Both the position numbers and the translations under genes were made by a program. A stretch of 34,282 nt of DNA from a virus, in the UHGV virus genome UHGV-0276200, one strand, 5' to 3'. Under the pieces are notes generated by a model. The model worked only from the letters and a program-made list of their open reading frames with translations. It did no database searches and was not told the origin of the DNA. This document shows positions 2,109 through 33,974 of this stretch, one piece after another. Numbering within the stretch: position 1 is the first letter of the stretch; each line of letters begins with the position of its first letter.

Positions 2109-3125
2109 TCACTTTAAGTTAAATAAGGGGTTTTTAGTAACAGCATCTTCAAGATGTTCTGGTGCGAAATGGGCATAGACCATTGTCATTTTTATATCTG
2201 AGTGCCCTAAAATATCTCTCAATACAAGAATATTTCCGCCATTCATCATAAAGTGACTAGCGAATGTATGGCGCAATACATGCGTGCACTGGCCCTCTGG
2301 CAAGTCAATACCTGCTCTTTTTACTGCACGCTCAAAAGATTTTCTGCATGGCGTGAATAACTTCCCTCTGTTTTTGGGGAGTTCGTGATACAGATCTTGA
2401 GATATTGGTACTGTTCTGTTTTTCTTGCCCTTTGTCTTTGTATAAGTAATTCGGTATTTCGATATTTGGTGGCCCTGAAGGTTTTCGGCTTCACTCCACC
2501 GTGCGCCGGTAGCTAAGCATATTTTTGCAATCATTAGTAGGCTCGGGCTTTGAGATTCAGCACATGCAGCCAACAGGCGCTTGATTTCGTCCACGGAAAG
2601 AAAAGCCAGCTCACCTTCGGTAATTTTGAAGGTCGGAAGTCCTGCCAGCGGGTTTGGTGCTGACCAGTGTCCTAGTTTTTTTAATGTACCGAACACCGAT
2701 GATAGATTGCGCTGTTCAAGGTTTACCGTGCGGGGCTTAACGGGCGACATAAGCGTGCCATCTTCATTTCGTACTTCACCTTTTAACCGTGCTTCGCGGT
2801 ATTTCGTAAAGTCACCGGCTGTTAGTTCTGAGGCGATGGGATCGCCTAGACCATTACAGATAATTCTAAGTTTCGCCATGAGGCGCTTGGGGTCTGCGAG
2901 TGTTTGACCATACAGGGAATACCACTGCTCAATTAATTCTGATAGGTGTCGCCGATCTTCCTTTTCCCCCAGCCATGGTTTTTTGTTCACTTCTTCCATT
3001 GTGAAGCTTTCAAAAGCAATGGCTTCGCCTTTCGTAGCAAATTGCTTACGCACGCGCTTGCCATTGCGTCCATTGGGATAGCACTCGCACAACCATTTAC
3101 CGTTTGGCTGTTTTCTGACAGTCAT
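2109..3125 (-). CDS. int: Tyrosine integrase (P2 Int family)
   Basis: 338 aa. N-terminus GRNGKRVRKQF...AFE resembles P2 Int; C-terminus has HxLRHTFAS...GH...MVYAH catalytic R/H/R/Y-type motifs. Located next to the att site. Confidence 0.9.
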   Translation of the reverse strand: MTVRKQPNGKWLCECYPNGRNGKRVRKQFATKGEAIAFESFTMEEVNKKPWLGEKEDRRHLSELIEQWYSLYGQTLADPKRLMAKLRIICNGLGDPIASELTAGDFTKYREARLKGEVRNEDGTLMSPVKPRTVNLEQRNLSSVFGTLKKLGHWSAPNPLAGLPTFKITEGELAFLSVDEIKRLLAACAESQSPSLLMIAKICLATGARWSEAENLQGHQISKYRITYTKTKGKKNRTVPISQDLYHELPKNRGKLFTPCRKSFERAVKRAGIDLPEGQCTHVLRHTFASHFMMNGGNILVLRDILGHSDIKMTMVYAHFAPEHLEDAVTKNPLFNLK

Positions 3126-6561: not shown

Positions 6562-8972
6562 CTCATGCCGATATGAACAACTGCTGCGGCTTTAACGAGG
6601 CTGCCGCAGCATTCTCATGGAACAGCCCGAAAAAGGCCATTAACCCTTATCTGGACCCGGCGGAAGTTGCGCCGGTTTCTACGCTTTCAAACCTGATCAC
6701 TCTGTACGCTGCCGATAACGAGCAGGAACAGTTGCGCCGCGAGGCACTGAGTGATCAGGTCTGGGAGCGTTATTTCTTTAATGAATCACGTGATCCTGTC
6801 CAGCGCGAAATGGAGCAGGATAAGCTCATTAGCCGGGCAAAGCTGGCGCATGAGCAGCAGCGTTTTAATTCAGACATGGTCATTCTGGCGGACGTCAACG
6901 CCCAGCCTTCCCATATCAGCAAGCCGCTGATGCAACGTATTGAATACTTCAGCAGCCTGGGCAGGCCAAAGGCTTATTCCCGCTATTTACGTGAGACGAT
7001 TAAGCCATGTCTGGAACGACTGGAGCATGTACGCGACAGTCAGCTATCTGCATCTTTTCGCTTTATGGCAAGCCATGAAGGGCTGGACGGCCTGCTGATC
7101 CTGCCTGAAATGAGTCAGGATCAGGTGAAACGCCTGTCCACCCTGGTAGCTGCGCATATGAGTATGTGCCTTGATGCAGCTTGTGGTGATTTGTATGCCA
7201 CCGATGACGTTAAGCCAGAAGAAATCCGCAAGACATGGGAAAAGGTGGCAGCGGAAACCCTGCGTCTGGATGTCATCCCACCTGCGTTTGAGCAACTCCG
7301 TCGGAAAAGAAACCGCCGTAAACCCGTGCCCTATGAACTCATTCCGGGTTCGCTGGCGCGTATGTTGTGCGCCGACTGGTGGTATCGGAAATTATGGAAG
7401 ATGCGTTGCGAATGGCGGGAAGAGCAGTTGCGCGCTGTTTGCCTGGTCAGCAAAAAAGCATCTCCTTATGTCAGCTATGAAGCCGTGATGCATAAACGTG
7501 AGCAGCGCCGTAAGTCGCTGGAGTTTTTCCGTTCTCATGAACTGGTGAACGAAGACGGCGACACGCTGGACATGGAGGATGTGGTAAACGCCAGCAGCAG
7601 CAACCCTGCGCATCGCCGCAATGAGATGATGGCCTGTGTTAAAGGTCTGGAGCTTATCGCGGAAATGCGCGGTGACTGCGCCGTTTTCTACACTATCACC
7701 TGTCCGTCGCGTTTCCATTCCACGCTAAATAACGGCAGACCAAACCCGACCTGGACAAACGCGACGGTAAGACAAAGCAGCGATTATCTGGTCGGCATGT
7801 TTGCTGCATTTCGTAAGGCGATGCACAAAGCCGGGTTGCGCTGGTATGGCGTGCGGGTGGCTGAGCCGCATCATGATGGCACAGTTCACTGGCACCTGTT
7901 GTGTTTCATGCGCAAAAAAGACCGCCGTGCCATCACTGCATTACTGCGTAAGTTTGCCATCCGTGAAGACCGCGAGGAGCTGGGCAATAACACTGGGCCG
8001 CGCTTTAAGTCTGAGTTGATTAACCCGCGCAAAGGAACGCCGACAAGCTACATCGCGAAATATATCAGTAAGAACATTGACGGTCGTGGTCTGGCTGGCG
8101 AGATCAGCAAGGAAACGGGTAAATCTCTGCGTGATAACGCTGAATACGTGAATGCCTGGGCGTCTTTGCATCGTGTTCAGCAATTCCGCTTCTTTGGCAT
8201 TCCGGGGCGTCAGGCTTACCGTGAACTGCGATTGTTGGCTGGTCAGGCGGCAAGGCAACAGGGGGACAAAAATGCAGGTGCGCCGGTACTGGATAACCCG
8301 CGTCTTGATGCCATTCTGGCTGCTGCTGATGCTGGTTGTTTTGCCACCTACATCATGAAGCAGGGCGGCGTACTGGTTCCCCGTAAATATCACCTCATCA
8401 GAACCGCTTATGAAATCAACGAAGAGCCGACCGCCTATGGCGATCACGGCATTCGTATTTATGGCATCTGGTCACCCATTGCAGAGGGCAAGATCTGCAC
8501 TCATGCAGTGAAGTGGAAAATGGTTCGTAAAGCCGTTGACGTTCAGGAGGCGGCAGCCGACCAGGGCGCTTGCGCCCCTTGGACTCGTGGCAATAACTGT
8601 CCCCTTGCTGAAAATTTGAACCAACAAGGGAAAGACAAATCAGCTGATGGGGATACCAGAACGGAAATCACCCGCATGGATGACAAGGAATTGCACGATT
8701 ACCTGCACAGTATGAGCAAAAAAGAGCGCCGGGAACTGGCAGCAAGGTTACGCCTGGTTAAACCGAAACGGCGTAAAGACTACAAACAGCGAATTACAGA
8801 TCATCAGCGACAGCAGCTCGTCTATGAACTGAAGTCCAGAGGATTTGATGGCAGCGAGAAAGAGGTCGATTTACTCCTTCGCGGCGGCAGTATTCCGTCA
8901 GGAGCAGGCCTGCGTATCTTCTATCGGAACCAGCGTCTGCAGGAGGATGATAAATGGCGGAACCTGTATTAA
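6558..8972 (+). CDS. A: Replication initiation protein A (rolling-circle nickase, P2 gpA family)
   Basis: 804 aa. HUH-like motif ([10 protein letters not shown]) and tyrosine motif ([12 protein letters not shown]). Positioned after the early operon as in P2/186. Confidence 0.85.
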
Positions 8973-9939: not shown

Positions 9940-10551
9940 ATGGATTTAGTCTTTAAAATTCTGGCTTCGTTGGGTGGGGTGTCTTTTGTTGCATCTGGCA
10001 TATTTGTTTGGATCGGGAAAGTTTATTTAGAAAGATATAAGTCGCGGCTAAACAAAGATATTGCTGAATTTCAATCACAACTGAGTGCAACTAATGAAAG
10101 AATAAAGGCTAAGTTAGACAATTCTGTTTATGTAACGAAAGCGTATTTTGATAAGGAGTTATCAGCATATAGTCTCATTTGGAATTCGATGTTTGAAACC
10201 AGAGAAAGCGTGCTTAAGCTGAGGCCTGCGCTGGATCATTTTGACCCCAACGAACCATTTGAAGAGAGAAAATTTAGAAGGTTGAAAGTTTTTTTCGATG
10301 CATTTAATACTTTTGTTACAAGTGTTGAGTCTAACAAACCGTTCATCTCACCAGAGGTTTATATAATCTTGGACCGTTTCCGGAAGGAATGCCTTTCAGA
10401 GTCAATATCGTTTCAGCATGGCGATCCAGAATTTGACTGGCAAAATTATTGGAAAGAGGCAGAGTTGAACCGTACAACCATCACCAAGCTTTTTGATGAG
10501 ACGTGTGATGCAATTCGAGACAGGATGCACACATTAACTGTGGTTACGTAG
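9940..10551 (+). CDS. Hypothetical membrane-anchored cargo protein (N-terminal transmembrane helix)
   Basis: 203 aa; residues about 5-26 are hydrophobic (ILASLGGVSFVASGIFVWIG), followed by a charged, helix-rich soluble region. AT-rich. Confidence 0.55.
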   Translation: MDLVFKILASLGGVSFVASGIFVWIGKVYLERYKSRLNKDIAEFQSQLSATNERIKAKLDNSVYVTKAYFDKELSAYSLIWNSMFETRESVLKLRPALDHFDPNEPFEERKFRRLKVFFDAFNTFVTSVESNKPFISPEVYIILDRFRKECLSESISFQHGDPEFDWQNYWKEAELNRTTITKLFDETCDAIRDRMHTLTVVT

Positions 10552-10669: not shown

Positions 10670-10711
10670 TATGTCATGCAGGCGCATGAAAACCACTACA
10701 TAAAGCGGGCA

Positions 10712-10840: not shown

Positions 10841-11539
10841 ATGGTTATGTTAGTGGATGACTGTCCACGATGTGGATCACAAAAAATAGCGTTTGATGTT
10901 AATGGGCTGAATTGCACTAGGGTTTACAATGCATTGGGCGGGGGTAAAACATACGAGTACGAGGTCTATTGTGTTTGCCGAGAGTGTCATAAAACGACAA
11001 TGTTTCTTTGCAGACCTTTAACGAAAAATAAAACTTTAGATGGCTATAATTGGGAAAGTGGAATATTCGGCTTAAAGGAAGTTGCAGAGGTTGTTAGGCC
11101 TATATCACCGGCAGACTTAGCAGTAGAGGAGCCACCAGAGTTCTTACCTGAGCATATCAATAGTGCATATGAGGAAGGGGCGAAATGTTTGGCTATAGGT
11201 TGTTATAATGCAGCAGCAACCATGTTTAGGCTTTGCCTTGATTATGCCACAAAAGGACTTCTTCCTGATGGGGAGCAAGGGCCTGCGCAAAAAATAAGGA
11301 GAAGCCTAGGGTTAAGAATGGAGTGGTTATTTGATAATCATCTACTGCCTGAAGCTTTAAGGGAACTAGCTGAATGCGTTAAAGATGACGGAAATGATGG
11401 AGCGCATGAAGGTATTTTGGATAAAGCTGCTGCTGAGGATCTTGAAGATTTTACCTATCTTTTTTTAGAACGGCTTTACACTGAACCTCAACGCCTTATC
11501 GAAGCCAAGACAAGGCGTGAACAAAGAAGAAACAAATAA
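10841..11539 (+). CDS. Hypothetical cargo protein: N-terminal zinc ribbon plus C-terminal DUF4145-like domain
   Basis: 232 aa; CPRCGS...CVCRECHK gives four Cys. C-terminal helical region with GNDGAHEG and the following acidic helix resembles the DUF4145 signature as recalled. Strong RBS GGGAGGAG. About 42% GC. Lies between cos and the Q stop. Confidence 0.6.
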   Translation: MVMLVDDCPRCGSQKIAFDVNGLNCTRVYNALGGGKTYEYEVYCVCRECHKTTMFLCRPLTKNKTLDGYNWESGIFGLKEVAEVVRPISPADLAVEEPPEFLPEHINSAYEEGAKCLAIGCYNAAATMFRLCLDYATKGLLPDGEQGPAQKIRRSLGLRMEWLFDNHLLPEALRELAECVKDDGNDGAHEGILDKAAAEDLEDFTYLFLERLYTEPQRLIEAKTRREQRRNK

Positions 11540-19089: not shown

Positions 19090-19483
19090 AGCAGTGCCTT
19101 ATGTCCGCAATAACCCGGATAAGCTGCATCTGTTTGTGGATAACGGTTCGCTGGTTGCCACGGGGGCCAGCTCCATGTCATGGGAGTACCGTTATACCCT
19201 CAACGTGGTGATTGAGGATTTCAGCGGCGACCAGAATCTGCTGATGGCCCCGGTTTTGCTGTGGCTGCGTGATAACCAGCCCGATGCCATCAATAATCCG
19301 GCGTTACGGGAAAAGTTATTCACCTTTGAGGTGGATATTCTGCGCAACGATGTCTGTGATATCAGCCTCAACCTGCAACTGACGGAACGTGTGCTGGTCA
19401 GCACTGACGGAAGTGTGTCGAGCGTTGAAGCAGTAGCGGAACCCGATGAACCTGAAGAAATGTGGACGGTGAAACGTGGCTGA
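19052..19483 (+). CDS. R: Tail completion protein R
   Basis: GTG at 19052 preceded by AGGAG at 19041-45. The track start at 19031 is a TTG. Confidence 0.7.
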   Translation: MNKPQSLRHALNKAVPYVRNNPDKLHLFVDNGSLVATGASSMSWEYRYTLNVVIEDFSGDQNLLMAPVLLWLRDNQPDAINNPALREKLFTFEVDILRNDVCDISLNLQLTERVLVSTDGSVSSVEAVAEPDEPEEMWTVKRG

Positions 19484-19928
19484 ACTGCAGAAGGTGGACG
19501 ACTGGCTGAGTGCTTTGCTGGCGAATCTGGAACCAGCCGCAAGAAGCCGAATGATGCGCCAGCTGGCGCAGGAACTGCGCCGGACACAGCAGCAGAATAT
19601 CAGGATGCAGCGCAATCCAGATGGCAGCAGTTATGAGCCGCGCAGGGTAACAGCACGCAGCAAGAAGGGGCGCATCAAACGTCAGATGTTTGCAAAGCTG
19701 CGCACCACAAAATACCTGAGAACTGCCGCCAGCGCGGATTCTGCCAGCGTACAGTTTGAAGGTAAGGTACAGCGTATTGCCCGTGTTCATCACTACGGTC
19801 TGCGCGATCGCGTCAGTCCAAAGGGGGGAGTCATTAAGTATCCATCCCGAAAATTGCTGGGTTTAAATGAACATACTGAAAATGAAGTAAGAGATTTACT
19901 TTTAAAGTATTTATTGATGAAAAATTAG
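19476..19928 (+). CDS. S: Tail completion protein S
   Basis: 150 aa (P2 S is 150); GTG start overlapping the R stop. Confidence 0.7.
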   Translation: MAELQKVDDWLSALLANLEPAARSRMMRQLAQELRRTQQQNIRMQRNPDGSSYEPRRVTARSKKGRIKRQMFAKLRTTKYLRTAASADSASVQFEGKVQRIARVHHYGLRDRVSPKGGVIKYPSRKLLGLNEHTENEVRDLLLKYLLMKN

Positions 19929-19933
19929 AATGT

Positions 19934-20464
19934 TTACGCTCTTAATAAACTTAAATAACTTTTTATGCTTTGGCAAAAAGGGAAAAGGTCTATTTTAATT
20001 TTCCAGTTTTTTTTGTTTTGAACCCCAGAAGCAATAATAGAACCGTCCCAATATTTTATTCCATTTTTGCCGGTCTTTTTTGTTAACTCAAAACTTAATG
20101 CGTGAATAATTTTATTGCAGCATTCGCGTATAGAATCTTTAACATGACCATCTATAACAAAAAGTATATTTTCATGTTCTTCAAATGCTTCTTTCTCAGG
20201 TGAGTAATCTGGGTTCCACTCATGTTCACTAGTGTCTTGGAGAATTCGTAGTTTTGTACAAAGGCTAATAAGATTGTTGCTAATGGTATATTCCAACCAT
20301 CCGTTGTACGATAACTCCTCCATTTCAAATTCAGTTACTATAGAACCATCATATACTTTCTGTGTGGAATATATACGCTGTAAATAAAATTCAGATGAAC
20401 AGCATAATTGCTCAATTATTCTTGCGTGTTCTTCTATAGCGTAATAATCAATTGGATGGCTCAT
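19934..20464 (-). CDS. Hypothetical AT-rich moron protein between S and V
   Basis: Antisense to the late operon. ATG at 20464 (MSHPIDYY...) preceded by a GAAAGG RBS. Stop lies 5 bp from the S stop. No domain recognised. Confidence 0.5.
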   Translation of the reverse strand: MSHPIDYYAIEEHARIIEQLCCSSEFYLQRIYSTQKVYDGSIVTEFEMEELSYNGWLEYTISNNLISLCTKLRILQDTSEHEWNPDYSPEKEAFEEHENILFVIDGHVKDSIRECCNKIIHALSFELTKKTGKNGIKYWDGSIIASGVQNKKNWKIKIDLFPFCQSIKSYLSLLRA

Positions 20465-20495
20465 TCTTTTACCTTTCTTTGATTGGAATTGTATT

Positions 20496-20513
20496 TGTGT
20501 CATTTACCACACA
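20496..20513. promoter_or_regulatory. Ogr-type late promoter activator site (TGT-N12-ACA) upstream of V
   Basis: tgtgtcatttaccacaca, about 47 bp upstream of the V start. Confidence 0.45.
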
Positions 20514-20559
20514 AGGACGTATTGATGCCATAGATTCAAGGTCCGTGCAACCTAACCCT

Positions 20560-21138
20560 ATGAACGCACAACTAACCGAAATCATGCGCCTTATCACCAA
20601 CCTGATCCGCACTGGTGTAGTCACCGAAGTGGACCGGGAAAACTGGCTTTGCCGGGTGAAAACGGGCGAGCTTGAAACCAACTGGATCAGCTGGCTGACG
20701 CTGCGTGCCGGGAATGCCCGCACATGGTGGCGACCATCGGAAGGTGAGCAGGTGGTGCTGCTGAGTCTGGGCGGCAATCTGGAAACTGCCTTTGCGCTGC
20801 CCGCTGTCTATTCGAATCAGTTCGCACCACCGTCGACGTCGGCAGACGCCTGCGTGACAGAACATCCTGACGGCGGCTGGTTTGAATACGAACCCACTAC
20901 CGGGCGCTGGTATGTCAGGGGCATCAAATCAATGGTCATTGAGGCCGCTGACAACATCACCATGAAAACCAGTGAGTTTGTACTGGAGGCTGACCGCACG
21001 CGCATTAACAGCGAAGTGGTGATCAATGGTGGCGTTACCCAGGGCGGCGGAGCGATGAGTTCTAACGGGATCGTGGTTGATGCGCATCAGCATACTGACG
21101 TCCTGAAAGGCGGCGACACAACCGGAGGCCCGGTATGA
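20560..21138 (+). CDS. V: Baseplate spike protein (P2 gpV family)
   Basis: ATG at 20560. IRTGVVTEVD...CRVKTGELETNWISWLT...WWRPSEGEQVVLLSLGG aligns with P2 V; the track ORF 20452 is over-extended. Confidence 0.85.
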   Translation: MNAQLTEIMRLITNLIRTGVVTEVDRENWLCRVKTGELETNWISWLTLRAGNARTWWRPSEGEQVVLLSLGGNLETAFALPAVYSNQFAPPSTSADACVTEHPDGGWFEYEPTTGRWYVRGIKSMVIEAADNITMKTSEFVLEADRTRINSEVVINGGVTQGGGAMSSNGIVVDAHQHTDVLKGGDTTGGPV

Positions 21139-22987: not shown

Positions 22988-24405
22988 GCACAAAATTTTA
23001 TACCCTGCTGACGGATATTGGCGCGGCGAAACTTGCCAGCGCCGCCGCGCTCGGTGTGCCGCTAAAAATTACCCATATGGCGGTGGGCGATGGCGGCGGA
23101 ACATTGCCAACGCCGGACGCCAAGCAGACAGCATTGGTAAATGAGAAACGCCGGGCTGCGCTGAATATGCTCTATATCGACCCGCAGAACAGCAGCCAGA
23201 TTATTGCTGAACAGGTGATCCCTGAAAACGAGGGCGGTTGGTGGATACGTGAAGTGGGCCTGTTTGATGAGTCCGGGGCATTGATTGCCGTGGGCAACTG
23301 CCCGGAAAGCTATAAGCCGCAACTGGCTGAAGGCAGCGGGCGTACCCAGACCGTGCGCATGGTGCTGATTACCAGCAGCACGGACAATATCACCCTGAAA
23401 ATCGACCCTGCCGTAGTGCTGGCAACCCGCAAGTATGTGGATGACAAGGTACTGGAGCTGAAGGTGTACGTGGATGATCAGATGGCAAAACATCTTGCCG
23501 CACCGGACCCGCATTCACAGTATGCACCCAAAGAAAGTCCGACGTTTACCGGGACACCAAAAGCGCCAACTCCAGCGGCAGGGAATAACACCACGCAGGT
23601 TGCGACCACCGCGTTTGTTCAGGCGGCACTGACGGCTCTTATTAATGGTGCGCCAGCCACGCTGGACACGCTGAAAGAAATAGCCGCAGCCATTAACAAT
23701 GATCCGAATTTCAGTACCACCATTAACAATGCGCTGGCACTGAAAGCGCCGTTGTCGAGTCCGGCACTCACCGGAACGCCAACAGCCCCCACTGCTGCAC
23801 AGTCGGTCAACAATACACAGATTGCCACCACGGCTTTTGTGAAATCGGCGATTGCAGCAATGGTAGGTTCTGCACCTGCGGCACTGGATACACTGAACGA
23901 ACTGGCGTCGGCGTTGGGGAATGATCCGAACTTTGCCACGACAATGCTTAATGCGCTGGCAGGTAAACAACCGCTGGACAATACGCTGACTAATTTGAGT
24001 GGAAAGGATGTCGCTGGTCTTCTCGCATACCTTGGTTTGGGAGAAGCGGCAAAACGGGACGTGGGAACAGGGGAAAATCAGATACCGGATATGGTTTCAT
24101 TTAGTGGTGTGAGGGATTTTTATGGAAAACAACTTTTGCCAGGAGGGTTGATACTCCAGTGGCTGACGATTCCATCAAGTGCAGCAGTCAAAGCTGTAAC
24201 ACTGGATAATGGTAATTATCAGCTGTCAGGCTATAAATGGCCCCAGTCATTTGGTGTCCTGTTTGCTGTGTTTGCCACAAAAGTTTCTGGCTCGACTAAC
24301 GAAGCATACGCAATCTCAGTTAATCGTCACTCTACCGATGTAATTGTCACCTGGAATGCCCGTAAGGCTGATGATGTCCATATTTTAGGAATTGGGAAAT
24401 TATGA
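22984..24405 (+). CDS. H: Tail fibre protein H (constant N-terminal part plus currently expressed variable C-terminus)
   Basis: 473 aa; a collagen-like repeat region followed by a C-terminal receptor-binding part that begins at the inversion crossover (about 24032). Confidence 0.85.
24020..24045. other. Left inversion crossover site (gix/hix-like, 26 bp)
   Basis: TTCTCGCATACC-TT-GGTTTGGGAGAA matches the Mu gix consensus recalled from memory at 18 of 26 positions; inner half and core are identical to the right site in inverted orientation. Confidence 0.55.
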
Positions 24406-24821
24406 AAATGAAATGGTCCCCATCTGTTCAGGGATTTTTCTCTGAAAACAACAGCGATATTCCCGATGATGCTTTCGATATTGAAGATGCTCTTTATTAT
24501 GAACTTATGAATGGTCAGAGTACGGGGAAAATTATTATCAATAGCCCGGATAACTACCCTGTACTTACTGAATATCCAGCGAAGACACATGAACAGGAAA
24601 TAGCTGAAGCGGAGGGAATGAAAAATATACTTATTGAACAGGCCAACGATTATATGAACAGTAAACAATGGCCTGGTAAAGCGGCTATTGGCCGGCTGAA
24701 AGGTGAGGAACTGGCACAATATAATTTGTGGCTGGATTACCTGGACGCACTGGAACTGGTCGATACTTCCGGTGCGCCAGATATTGAATGGCCTACACCT
24801 CCGGTAACTCAGGCCAGCTAA
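24402..24821 (+). CDS. G: Tail fibre assembly protein (P2 gpG / Tfa family)
   Basis: 139 aa. N-terminus and C-terminal motif [12 protein letters not shown] are paralogous to the minus-strand tfa' copy. Confidence 0.75.
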
Positions 24822-25188
24822 TCTCAGGAGCCGTCGAAGTGTCGACGGCTTTTACTTCTTTTTTGTAGTCCATCCAGGCAGATAGTTTTTCTTTATCTGT
24901 ACTGCTGATATCACCAAGCATTAATTCCACCCGCCAGTCAGCTGTGACATTATCGGCATGAGCAAGTAACTGCATTCGCTGATTTTCAGCACGTGCGACA
25001 TAATCAATCGCCGGAGATTTCAGTACCGGTAAACCATTTTCATCTGACGTGATTAATTTCCCCCCTTCCTGCTGTCCGGCAATTAATTCATTGTATAAGT
25101 CTGTACTTATCTCAACAATGTCAGCAGGCATGTCGCTGTTTATACCATCAAAGAAAAAACCATTAGTCGATTTTGAGAAATAAATCAT
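24793..25188 (-). CDS. Alternative tail fibre assembly protein (tfa'), on the inverted arm of the segment
   Basis: ATG at 25188 (MIYFSKSTNGFFFDG...) parallels the G N-terminus; C-terminal [12 protein letters not shown] is conserved. The track start at 25218 is a TTG. Confidence 0.65.
   Translation of the reverse strand: MIYFSKSTNGFFFDGINSDMPADIVEISTDLYNELIAGQQEGGKLITSDENGLPVLKSPAIDYVARAENQRMQLLAHADNVTADWRVELMLGDISSTDKEKLSAWMDYKKEVKAVDTSTAPEISWPELPEV
24830..24865 (+). terminator. Possible terminator hairpin downstream of G, lying inside the 3' coding end of tfa'
   Basis: GCCGTCGA-AGTG-TCGACGGC (8-bp stem) followed by TTTTACTTCTTTTTTG. Confidence 0.3.
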
Positions 25189-25196
25189 AGATATAC

Positions 25197-25563
25197 CTAT
25201 ACACCGATTGCTACCCAAAAACAGGACCTTTCATATTTGACAATTTCTCCCTGAGATATACCGCCAACAATTATATAGAACTGTGATTTGCTGATATCAG
25301 AACAGTTCGCTATGCCCATTGCAGATATACCAGCCACCGACGTTGTATGTGGCACAGCCAACAGCGCAAGTGAACGATTTGGGAATGTTACCGGGTAAGT
25401 CACCGTATAGTTTGATGCTCCACTGACAATACCCCACTGAATAATCAGACCTGAAGGGAGTTTTTGAAAACCCGTTGATGAAAGTGAACTGGCAAACGCC
25501 GCCATATCCGGAATTTGGTTTTGCTCGTTACCCACATTTCGTTTTGCCGCTTCTCCCAAACCA
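25197..25563 (-). CDS. Alternative tail fibre C-terminal segment (Hv'), with no own start; fused in frame to constant H after inversion
   Basis: The minus-strand frame reads ...[21 protein letters not shown]..., sharing GLGEAAKR and the same codon phase with H at the crossover. Confidence 0.6.
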
Positions 25564-25576
25564 ACGTTTATGAAAA
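25551..25576. other. Right inversion crossover site (gix/hix-like, 26 bp)
   Basis: TTCTCCCAAACC-AA-CGTTTATGAAAA matches the reverse gix consensus at 17 of 26 positions; core dinucleotide AA is complementary to TT at the left site. Confidence 0.55.
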
Positions 25577-25631
25577 TGCAGAGATAACGGCTAACTGGCA
25601 TCATCTCCGGTTTTTATTCAGGGGGATGATC

Positions 25632-26198
25632 ATGCTTATTGGCTATGTACGCGTGTCAACAAATGACCAGAACACCGATTTGCAACGTAATGCACTGAAC
25701 TGCGCGGGATGTGAGCGGATTTTTGAGGATAAAATCAGTGGCACTAAGTCCGACAGACCGGGGCTGAAAAAGCTGCTCAGGACACTATCGGCAGGAGACA
25801 CGCTGGTTGTCTGGAAGCTGGACAGGTTGGGGCGCAGTATGCGGCATCTTGTTACGCTGATAGAGGAGTTGCGCCAGCGTGGTGTGAATTTCCGAAGCCT
25901 GACTGACAGTATTGATACCAGTACCCCAATGGGCCGTTTCTTTTTTCATGTCATGGGTGCCCTGGCTGAAATGGAACGCGAACTGATAGTTGAACGTACC
26001 AGGGCAGGGCTGGCTGCAGCTCGTGCCAAAGGCAGAGTAGGTGGACGCCGTCCTAAGTTGACCACCGAACAGTGGGCACAGATTGGGCGTTTACTCGAGG
26101 CCGGAGAATCAAGACAGCGTATTGCACTGATTTTTGATGTGGGTGTTTCCACAATTTATAGAAAATTTCCGGCAAATAAGAGTAATGAATCCCCCTGA
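25632..26198 (+). CDS. gin: Serine DNA invertase (Gin/Hin/Cin/Pin family)
   Basis: MLIGYVRVSTNDQNTDLQRNAL...VVWKLDRLGRSM...FFHVMGALAEMERELI is near-identical to Mu Gin across the catalytic domain, with a C-terminal HTH. The track ORF 25515 is over-extended. Confidence 0.92.
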   Translation: MLIGYVRVSTNDQNTDLQRNALNCAGCERIFEDKISGTKSDRPGLKKLLRTLSAGDTLVVWKLDRLGRSMRHLVTLIEELRQRGVNFRSLTDSIDTSTPMGRFFFHVMGALAEMERELIVERTRAGLAAARAKGRVGGRRPKLTTEQWAQIGRLLEAGESRQRIALIFDVGVSTIYRKFPANKSNESP

Positions 26199-33246: not shown

Positions 33247-33465
33247 ATGATGAATTGTCCAAAGTGTGGTCATGCGGCGCACACAAGGAGCAGTTTTCAA
33301 GTAACAGAAAGCACCAAAGAGCGTTACTGCCAGTGCCAAAATATTAACTGCGGGAGCACTTTTGTTACCCATGAAACAGTGGTCCGGTTTATTGTGACAC
33401 CTGCAGTGATTGCCACAGCCCCTCCACATCCATTGCCAGGTGGTCAGGGCCATATGAATTTTTAA
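33247..33465 (+). CDS. ogr: Ogr/Delta-family zinc-finger late transcription activator
   Basis: MMNCPKCGHAAHTR...KERYCQCQNINCGSTF...HPLPGGQ aligns closely with P2 Ogr (CxxC...CxxxxC); 72 codons. Confidence 0.8.
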   Translation: MMNCPKCGHAAHTRSSFQVTESTKERYCQCQNINCGSTFVTHETVVRFIVTPAVIATAPPHPLPGGQGHMNF

Positions 33466-33472
33466 GAAAGAG

Positions 33473-33496
33473 AACCTGCTACGGCAGGTTTTTATT
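33473..33496. terminator. Bidirectional terminator hairpin between convergent ogr and the WYL-BRCT gene
   Basis: AACCTGC-TACG-GCAGGTT (7-bp stem) followed by TTTATT on the plus strand; placed just after both stop codons. Confidence 0.5.
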
Positions 33497-33974
33497 CATC
33501 TGGGATCTCACCCGTTTCAAGAAAATGTATAAAGCCAGGCTCATCTATGATGATAGTGCCTTTCATCCTGGCTGCCGATACTTTTGATGGGCCTGCATTG
33601 TAACCGCAACAGAGCATCTGAAGGTTTTGGGTTACAGATGTTCTTACCGTTAATCCTTGTTCATTCGCCTTATCAACCAACCTTTCTTTATCTGCTTTCT
33701 TAAATCCGGTGAAACACACATCGAATGTATTTTTTTTCGGACCTGACTGCTTAGTGAGATGTGAGTAGTTTTCGGGGAGGAATGACGCGCATTCCTGAAT
33801 GGCTTGTTCTTGTGAATCGTATTGTTTAAGAATGCGGTCTTTTCGGAAGGTTTTTATTCGATCGGTGTTCTTACAAATGCCCTGTATGTGATTTTCGCTA
33901 TAACTGATGCTCTGTATTGAGTGAACACCGATACGACCATTTGCATTGATGTAAACAAAGTGAAGTTCTTCCAT
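33492..33974 (-). CDS. Hypothetical cargo protein: N-terminal WYL-like domain fused to C-terminal BRCT domain
   Basis: 160 aa. N-terminus YINANGRIGVHSIQSISYSENHIQGICKNTDRIKTFRKDRI fits the WYL pattern (...R.FR.DRI). C-terminus VCFTGF...KERLVDKANEQGLTVRTSVTQNLQMLCCGYNAGPSKVSAARMKGTIIIDEPGF aligns with the BRCT domain of NAD-dependent ligase LigA. AGAGG RBS; about 42% GC. Confidence 0.6.
   Translation of the reverse strand: MEELHFVYINANGRIGVHSIQSISYSENHIQGICKNTDRIKTFRKDRILKQYDSQEQAIQECASFLPENYSHLTKQSGPKKNTFDVCFTGFKKADKERLVDKANEQGLTVRTSVTQNLQMLCCGYNAGPSKVSAARMKGTIIIDEPGFIHFLETGEIPDE

Follow-up and report, generated by a model that had tools for sequence, protein, structure and literature searches.

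CARTA_14, an AT-rich antisense cargo gene in the S-V (orf30) slot of a P2-like prophage, probably encodes a single-gene defence protein

Three loci of P2-like phages have been listed as holding horizontally acquired genes, and one of them is the orf30 locus, which lies between the tail genes S and V (PMC3091744; also PMC6823313). In P2 itself this slot holds Orf30 (NP_046770), which is encoded antisense in AT-rich DNA (the GC fraction of the P2 S-V interval is 0.35) and is annotated as non-essential with no assigned function. Here we analyze the same slot in a stretch of viral DNA of 34,282 nucleotides (nt), UHGV virus genome UHGV-0276200 (the whole of which is hereafter called the window), where it is occupied by CARTA_14 (PQA61_gp14, LF82_787, WP_000019234), a minus-strand coding sequence (CDS) at 19934..20464, stop codon included, that specifies a protein of 176 amino acids (aa). 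CARTA_14 and P2 orf30 share slot, antisense orientation and AT-richness, and both have their start codon 15-32 nt from the activator site of the late promoter PV. The proteins themselves differ: P2 Orf30 is a 261-aa protein with hydrophobic, membrane-like segments, whereas the CARTA_14 product is soluble (176 aa, 20.6 kDa, isoelectric point 5.4), and homology between them was rejected on a BLASTP E-value of 0.22 over 27 residues. Further, a putative terminator separates S from orf30 in P2, whereas a terminator scan found none at CARTA_14. On the protein side the described counterparts include the Abi_2 proteins (AbiD/AbiD1/AbiF, PF07751), single-protein HEPN abortive-infection proteins that are partnerless like CARTA_14.

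Over a 1.6-kb stretch around the gene, the window has 100% identity to Escherichia phage Cartapus (NC_070909 / OV696611; Peduoviridae, Elveevirus), the P2-like prophage carried by the adherent-invasive E. coli strain LF82; RefSeq and ENA both annotate the same 176-aa CDS (CARTA_14 / PQA61_gp14) with a hypothetical product. The initial annotation of the window, made from its letters, had placed a 176-aa minus-strand open reading frame (ORF) between S and V, with a GC content much lower than that of the surrounding late operon and no recognizable domain. Each of these points holds: the coordinates match the database CDS, the GC fraction is 0.28-0.33 across the gene against 0.53-0.61 in its flanks, and the protein has no match in Pfam, PADLOC (v2 models) or NCBIfam even at E<=1. 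The frame can be opened either at 20503 (189 aa, the longer form given in the ORF list) or at 20464 (176 aa); the ATG at 20464 is supported because close homologues (15/15) begin with MSHPI, and we rejected the longer form both for this reason and because the ATG at 20503 lies inside the Ogr-type dyad described below. A Shine-Dalgarno sequence, AAAGGT, can be read at 20471..20476 (minus strand), 6-7 nt upstream of the 20464 ATG, and AGG or AAGG is retained upstream of the ATG in the Salmonella and Enterobacter copies. The ratio of nonsynonymous to synonymous substitution rates (dN/dS) is 0.09-0.10 in comparison with the 74%-identical Salmonella copy. Judged from these sequences, CARTA_14 is a real gene under purifying selection.

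The gene stands between two backbone genes: S (19476..19928, plus; a PF05069 homologue of tail completion or virion morphogenesis), which converges on it with 5 nt between the two stop codons, and V (20560..21138, plus; PF04717, the baseplate spike), with which the PV late operon begins. For a survey of this slot in IMG/VR we took the 80 best loci whose S protein is at least 83% identical; the S-V interval was measured in 79. The survey showed that: 1) The slot is empty in 58 of the 79 loci, in which S is joined to V by 68 nt while S and V themselves are 85-99% identical; Klebsiella phage KP12 and E. coli phage 500465-1 likewise have 68 nt between S and V. 2) CARTA_14 is present in 11 loci at 98-100% identity. 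3) Another 10 loci hold different cargo, with a GC fraction of 0.32-0.34 and antisense without exception. This alternative cargo is of five types, namely a Septu pair (PtuA, E 1e-139; PtuB, E 1e-56, split into two ORFs), a 566-aa AIPR/AbiU protein (E 1e-25), a DUF6216 membrane protein, a 245-aa protein of no known family and a 253-aa membrane protein, and across all types of S-V cargo the GC fraction is 0.32-0.39. More distant copies of CARTA_14, at 74% identity in Salmonella and 60% in Enterobacter, occupy the same S-V slot of prophages. That the gene might instead be a positionally conserved backbone or structural component, or else a spurious or untranslated frame, is a reading to which the comparative data leave practically no probability: it does lie inside the tail gene cluster, and some ORF fills the slot in P2 and several relatives, but it is missing from 58 of the 79 close relatives, P2 Orf30 is unrelated and annotated non-essential, and a dN/dS of 0.09 together with a family of 464 clusters excludes a spurious frame.

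Two of the alternative cargoes have features of their own. In the Septu locus (L033:4142-6122) PtuA is intact (442 aa), and the two PtuB ORFs of 111 and 78 aa match the N- and C-terminal halves of the model, so that this PtuB is probably a frameshifted pseudogene. The 245-aa protein (L059:3962-4699) contains the string KARRDTGVHNNW, an R-x4-H arrangement like the canonical HEPN motif, and has no match in Pfam, PADLOC or NCBIfam.

Alignment of the S-V junction to the cargo-free relatives showed an insertion or replacement that extends beyond the gene. Similarity is lost at about 19872, inside S, and is regained at about 20547, 13 nt before the ATG of V; the whole variable segment (19872..20546) thus comprises the cargo gene together with the 3' end of S and a PV promoter version of its own. 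In the final ~19 codons of S (19872..19928, plus), which belong to the exchanged AT-rich DNA and have a GC fraction of 0.20, the amino-acid pattern is kept while the sequence is cargo-specific. Indeed, every cargo type has its own AT-rich last 17-20 codons of S (GC 0.20-0.42, against ~0.53 upstream) and its own TGT-N12-ACA dyad. Therefore the exchange unit runs from inside S to just before V and, as the C-terminus of S differs with each cassette, the boundary of the hotspot falls inside an essential tail gene. A C-terminal S pattern of the form LLGxN...D/N-hL..hL is kept although the codons differ by cargo type (L028, L033, L042, L059, L067, L005, L006 and the window). These comparisons indicate that CARTA_14 reached the S-V (orf30) hotspot of P2-like phages as cargo by horizontal acquisition, in a cassette that would have brought, along with the gene, an AT-rich S 3' end and a PV promoter version of its own, and that likely spread by homologous recombination within S and V between such phages.

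The PV promoter carried by the segment has an Ogr-type activator dyad of the form TGT-N12-ACA, TGTGTCATTTACCACACA, at 20496..20513, the near edge of which is 32 nt from the ATG of CARTA_14. The window contains the bare pattern 8 times, against 9.1 occurrences expected by chance; a pattern match alone is therefore no evidence. However, the centre of this dyad lies 55.5 nt from the ATG of V, a distance that is identical in the cargo-free relatives and in P2, for which annotation gives both the activator site and the PV start. It is this position relative to V, rather than the match, that identifies the dyad, and the site proposed in the initial annotation about 32 bp upstream of the cargo gene thereby finds its counterpart in P2. 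Further copies of the pattern are found at the expected late promoters of P/O (14337, 14395) and F (26247). In P2 the annotated PV transcription start is the first base of the V CDS and, with the same dyad spacing in Cartapus and the cargo-free relatives (L002 and L003, ~2030-2092; L004, 2740-2809), the V mRNA would therefore be leaderless or nearly so across the group. Activation of CARTA_14 by Ogr was rejected on geometry, as a start site 55 nt leftward of the dyad centre would be at ~20449, inside the ORF.

A strict sigma-70 scan found no promoter for CARTA_14 on the minus strand. By eye, a candidate weak sigma-70 promoter may be placed at 20488..20513 (minus), with a -35 hexamer TTGTGT (20513..20508), a 14-nt spacer and a -10 hexamer TACAAT (20493..20488). 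The candidate -35 hexamer is itself one arm of the Ogr dyad, and a TACAAT/TACAAA-like hexamer adjoining the dyad recurs in the Salmonella and Enterobacter copies. At the other end of the gene, no stable hairpin is formed in the 5-nt gap toward S.

Transcriptomes have been published for LF82, a well-studied Crohn's-associated strain, and allow the gene to be followed in its natural lysogen. In these data, given as log2(FPKM+5), with FPKM the fragments per million mapped reads and per kilobase of transcript, and of strandedness not established (PMC9928086 S1 Table), LF82_787 has values of 3.5 and 2.7, that is background, in stationary lysogeny broth (LB), 5.1-6.0 in Dulbecco's modified Eagle medium (DMEM) and 4.4-5.3 in macrophages. 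In the same table S has values of 2.3-3.6, V of 2.3-3.1 but ~4.2 at 6 h in macrophages, and cI of 8.1-9.3 (PMC9928086). On the published values, then, CARTA_14 is transcribed in the lysogen independently of the neighboring late genes. The LF82 study itself applied a moron criterion based on the LB data only, and lists other Cartapus genes and not CARTA_14 (PMC9928086), because the expression of the latter shows only in DMEM and macrophages. The initial annotation had called the gene a moron. In the strict sense a moron is a gene with its own promoter and its own terminator that is expressed in the lysogen. The designation stands as far as an acquired, AT-rich, antisense insertion with lysogen expression is meant; for the strict sense there is a weak candidate promoter, the scan yielded no terminator, and by the LB criterion the gene falls outside the class.

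The same data bear on two further readings of the gene. According to the first, it would be a counter-defence or lytic-cycle accessory gene that aids Cartapus, for instance as an inhibitor of a host defence system. The gene does adjoin a late promoter, and a few P2-like phages bear anti-defence genes, but only 28 of 1511 elements do so (PMC13586616); moreover CARTA_14 is transcribed against the late operons and is on in the lysogen, where the late genes are off, the dyad geometry forbids leftward Ogr activation, and family members are found outside phages too, in chromosomal integron cassettes. We regard this reading as very improbable. According to the second, CARTA_14 would have no anti-phage role and would serve in lysogenic conversion, as a modulator of the host or as a selfish, toxin-like stabilizer; for example, it might change the RNA metabolism or the stress physiology of the host in the gut or in macrophages. 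The rise from background in stationary LB to ~20-55 FPKM in DMEM and macrophages and the gene's presence in animal isolates as well as in LF82, a pathogenic strain, would fit such a role, and integron cassettes and prophage hotspots hold non-defence cargo too. However, neither the 631-nt S-V segment nor the integron cassette contains an antitoxin ORF, the spread of the family through marine Vibrionaceae, Pseudoalteromonas, Chloroflexia, Dokdonia and metagenomes does not suggest host-niche virulence, and the identifiable neighbors are of the phage-defence type (Abi_2 and a Lit-like U49 peptidase beside family members; Septu and AbiU in the same slot), all of which makes it decidedly unlikely.

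Within E. coli the gene is sparse: it is found in 22 of 5426 complete genomes, as a single chromosomal copy every time, and a tblastn search over 50,697 phage records recovered the protein only in the two Cartapus records. Literature searches by accession, locus tags and PHROG number returned no mention of CARTA_14, nor is it named in the P2 hotspot papers, which cover the gpA-Q, Z/fun and 'tail gene' hotspots. While a word-indexed search of the protein recovered 16 relatives, a profile search of 1.84 billion representatives of 50%-identity clusters recovered 464 at E<=1e-3. Nearly all of the best 150 of these are stand-alone proteins of 75-250 aa, mostly 170-210 aa. Among 54 diverse members, which align with 19-41% identity to CARTA_14, R73, R113, N117, K118, H121, G147 and W154 are at least 90% conserved, and the core motif is of the form [LI]-x-[IL]-R-E-x-[C/W/F]-N-K-I-I-H-A, which in CARTA_14 reads IRExCNKIIHA.

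The family spans marine Vibrionaceae, Pseudoalteromonas, metagenome-assembled genomes of Chloroflexia and Dokdonia, and many metagenomes. A scan of a genome collection with a narrow family alignment gave 6 loci only, and the genomic contexts found, though varied, are all mobile or conflict-related: 1) one member directly adjoins an Abi_2 gene and a DUF6338 gene; 2) another lies within an element carrying AlpA; 3) others stand beside HP1-type tail-fibre genes, or 4) beside a helicase and a T5orf172 protein; and 5) in Aliivibrio a member forms an integron cassette by itself, bounded by attC-like repeats of 129 nt and adjoining a cassette for a Lit-like Peptidase_U49. The surroundings of this last gene, in Aliivibrio sp. 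S4MY1 (L102:4500-12500), consist of ~8 small same-strand genes split by 82-129-nt repeats that start with TAACAA and end with GCGTTA, and resemble a chromosomal integron cassette array in which the CARTA_14 homologue (7887-8465) is one cassette, the one before it encoding the Peptidase_U49 and the one after it a GNAT acetyltransferase. A second plausible ORF was found neither in the 631-nt S-V interval nor in the integron cassette, each of which has one gene. As family members stand alone in varied contexts, the gene works without a partner. The family, which is widespread with at least 464 clusters, has no name, domain model or experimental record.

Searches for a described domain or fold gave little beyond the family itself. 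The sole family match of CARTA_14 is PHROG 18838, annotated 'unknown function'. Pfam found no family in 15 close homologues and gave no match at E<=1 for the 54 diverse members, for which PADLOC returned only three scattered weak matches and no consistent family; profile searches of PDB sequences gave chance matches only. Foldseek against PDB and BFVD returned nothing at E<=0.001, and the top-ranked folds for the predicted CARTA_14 structure are HEPN toxins. Comparison with an Abi_2 alignment by hhalign gave E-values of 0.07 and 0.17, which are not significant, but with the motifs in register, and we treat this as a lead only. These remote homology and structure searches therefore established no significant family, and agree with the initial annotation in that no domain is recognizable.

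In light of the above, CARTA_14 most likely encodes a stand-alone anti-phage effector, with its defence or conversion role suggested by context. What we observe is an insertion of atypical composition, under purifying selection and autonomous as a single gene, in a slot that also receives defence systems. As a joint explanation we tentatively favor that it is hotspot cargo encoding a HEPN-type, single-protein abortive-infection RNase expressed in the lysogen, although several points weigh against this. The HEPN assignment is statistically weak, with no significant profile similarity to described HEPN families; the motif is R113-x7-H121 rather than the conserved Rx4-6H of HEPN proteins, in which a polar residue follows the arginine; the position of the canonical arginine before N117 is occupied by Cys, Trp or Phe, while N-x3-H and an upstream arginine are conserved; and no PADLOC model of any described defence system matches.

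The weakness of the HEPN assignment and the missing canonical arginine speak for a non-RNase defence or superinfection-exclusion protein, in which the helical bundle and the sheet would bind and block, or sense, a protein or nucleic acid of the incoming phage and the R/N/K/H residues would form a ligand site. The evidence from context serves it as well as it serves the RNase. Yet a near-invariant R...N-K-x-x-H on one helix, kept over 54 members at ~20-40% identity, is more typical of a catalytic site, and HEPN toxins are the top-ranked folds; on balance a protein of this kind appears unlikely.

Under the favored HEPN RNase reading, CARTA_14 would have a weak promoter of its own and a low level of transcription in the lysogen, opposite in strand to the silent late operons. 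The protein is predicted to consist of an N-terminal HEPN-type helical bundle, a C-terminal helix and, following the motif helix, an inserted three-stranded beta sheet, and would act like the single-protein HEPN abortive-infection proteins AbiD/F, AbiV and AbiU2. It would idle in the lysogen until a heterologous phage infects the cell and activates it, whereupon it would cut RNA at a site formed by R113, N117, K118 and H121, with R73 possibly substituting for the missing canonical arginine. Fold, RNase activity, trigger and promoter position are all inferred in this scheme. Such cutting would stop the infection and so protect the lysogenic population and the prophage. As the candidate promoter overlaps the Ogr dyad, one may further speculate that Ogr binding in the late phase of Cartapus itself shuts the gene off. 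A more specific and doubtful, if possible, proposal combines these elements: CARTA_14 would be the E. coli member of a widespread family of autonomous single-gene anti-phage effectors with a remodelled HEPN site (R-x7-H, Cys for the canonical Arg, perhaps with R73 supplied from another helix), moving as cassettes through prophage hotspots and chromosomal integrons, and with its promoter nested in the PV Ogr operator, so that the phage silences its own defence gene during late lytic growth.

The window contains the whole integrated prophage, with flanks of ~730 nt on the left and ~170 nt on the right, as the Cartapus record mapped onto it shows; this mapping places the integrase at 2109..3125, cos at 10680 and ogr at 33247..33465. 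Elsewhere in the prophage, CARTA_47 (9940-10551) and CARTA_1 (10841-11539, DUF4145) flank cos on both sides in the gpA-Q hotspot, and CARTA_32 (33492-33974) adjoins attR/ssrA; all three are further cargo expressed in the lysogen, and in macrophages CARTA_47 and CARTA_1 rise from ~5 to ~9.5-10.5 log2 units in the published RNA-seq, far above the rise of CARTA_14. Homology of CARTA_14 to the DUF4145 protein of the same prophage was rejected by comparison. Between attL and the integrase lies CARTA_33 (894-2099, 401 aa), annotated 'putative RES protein, NAD+ binding domain', in a position reported to be a minor defence hotspot of P2-like prophages (PMC13586616). Finally, the tail-fibre assembly region at ~24400-26198 resembles an invertible host-range segment at the Z/fun position; it contains a Gin-like DNA invertase (25632-26198), a gp53-like fragment and two tail-fibre assembly genes in opposite orientations.

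The hotspots of P2-like phages that have been mined experimentally are gpA-Q and Z/fun, two classical P2 hotspots from which numerous new defence systems have already come; the S-V (orf30) slot, known as variable since the early 2000s, has hardly been mined. With Septu, AbiU/AIPR and several uncharacterized proteins, all antisense and AT-rich, it offers a compact and easily delimited source of candidate defence genes. The family of CARTA_14 is small in protein size, autonomous and widespread, and is in none of the domain and defence databases searched. If its anti-phage role is true, it would be a new single-gene system with a non-canonical HEPN-type active site; if false, CARTA_14 remains an ordinary hypothetical cargo gene.

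A comparison with the known systems places the gene as follows. The Septu and AbiU/AIPR cargoes of sister prophages occupy the same slot, likewise antisense and with a GC fraction of 0.33-0.34, and like CARTA_14 come with their own AT-rich S 3' end and their own PV dyad; their proteins are unrelated to CARTA_14 and belong to recognized defence systems, whereas CARTA_14 is unrecognized by PADLOC. The toxins of HEPN-MNT pairs carry the motif RX4HXY. In comparison with such toxins (PDB 7ae2, 5yep, 8xdj), CARTA_14 lacks both this motif and an adjacent MNT antitoxin gene, is only 4-10% identical, and has an extra three-stranded sheet and C-terminal helix in its predicted structure. With Abi_2 it shares a motif of the form phi-R-E-x-x-N-x-I-x-H that aligns residue for residue (SIRECCNKIIHA versus KIREMRNDIAHH), and, as noted, a neighborhood in one family member; however, Abi_2 proteins are ~300 aa long with two RNxxxH motifs, whereas CARTA_14 has a single motif with Cys for the catalytic Arg, and does not match Pfam PF07751. 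A single-gene defence cassette with a HEPN AbiU2 domain is also described from the chromosomal integron of V. mimicus (bioRxiv 10.64898/2026.03.17.712381); the Aliivibrio relative of CARTA_14 is likewise a single-gene cassette with attC-like repeats, adjoining a cassette for a Lit-like peptidase, although CARTA_14 itself has no Pfam AbiU2 match. Thus, as AT-rich antisense cargo in the orf30 slot of P2, CARTA_14 is of a known kind and, in view of its context, it is probably a single-gene defence protein.
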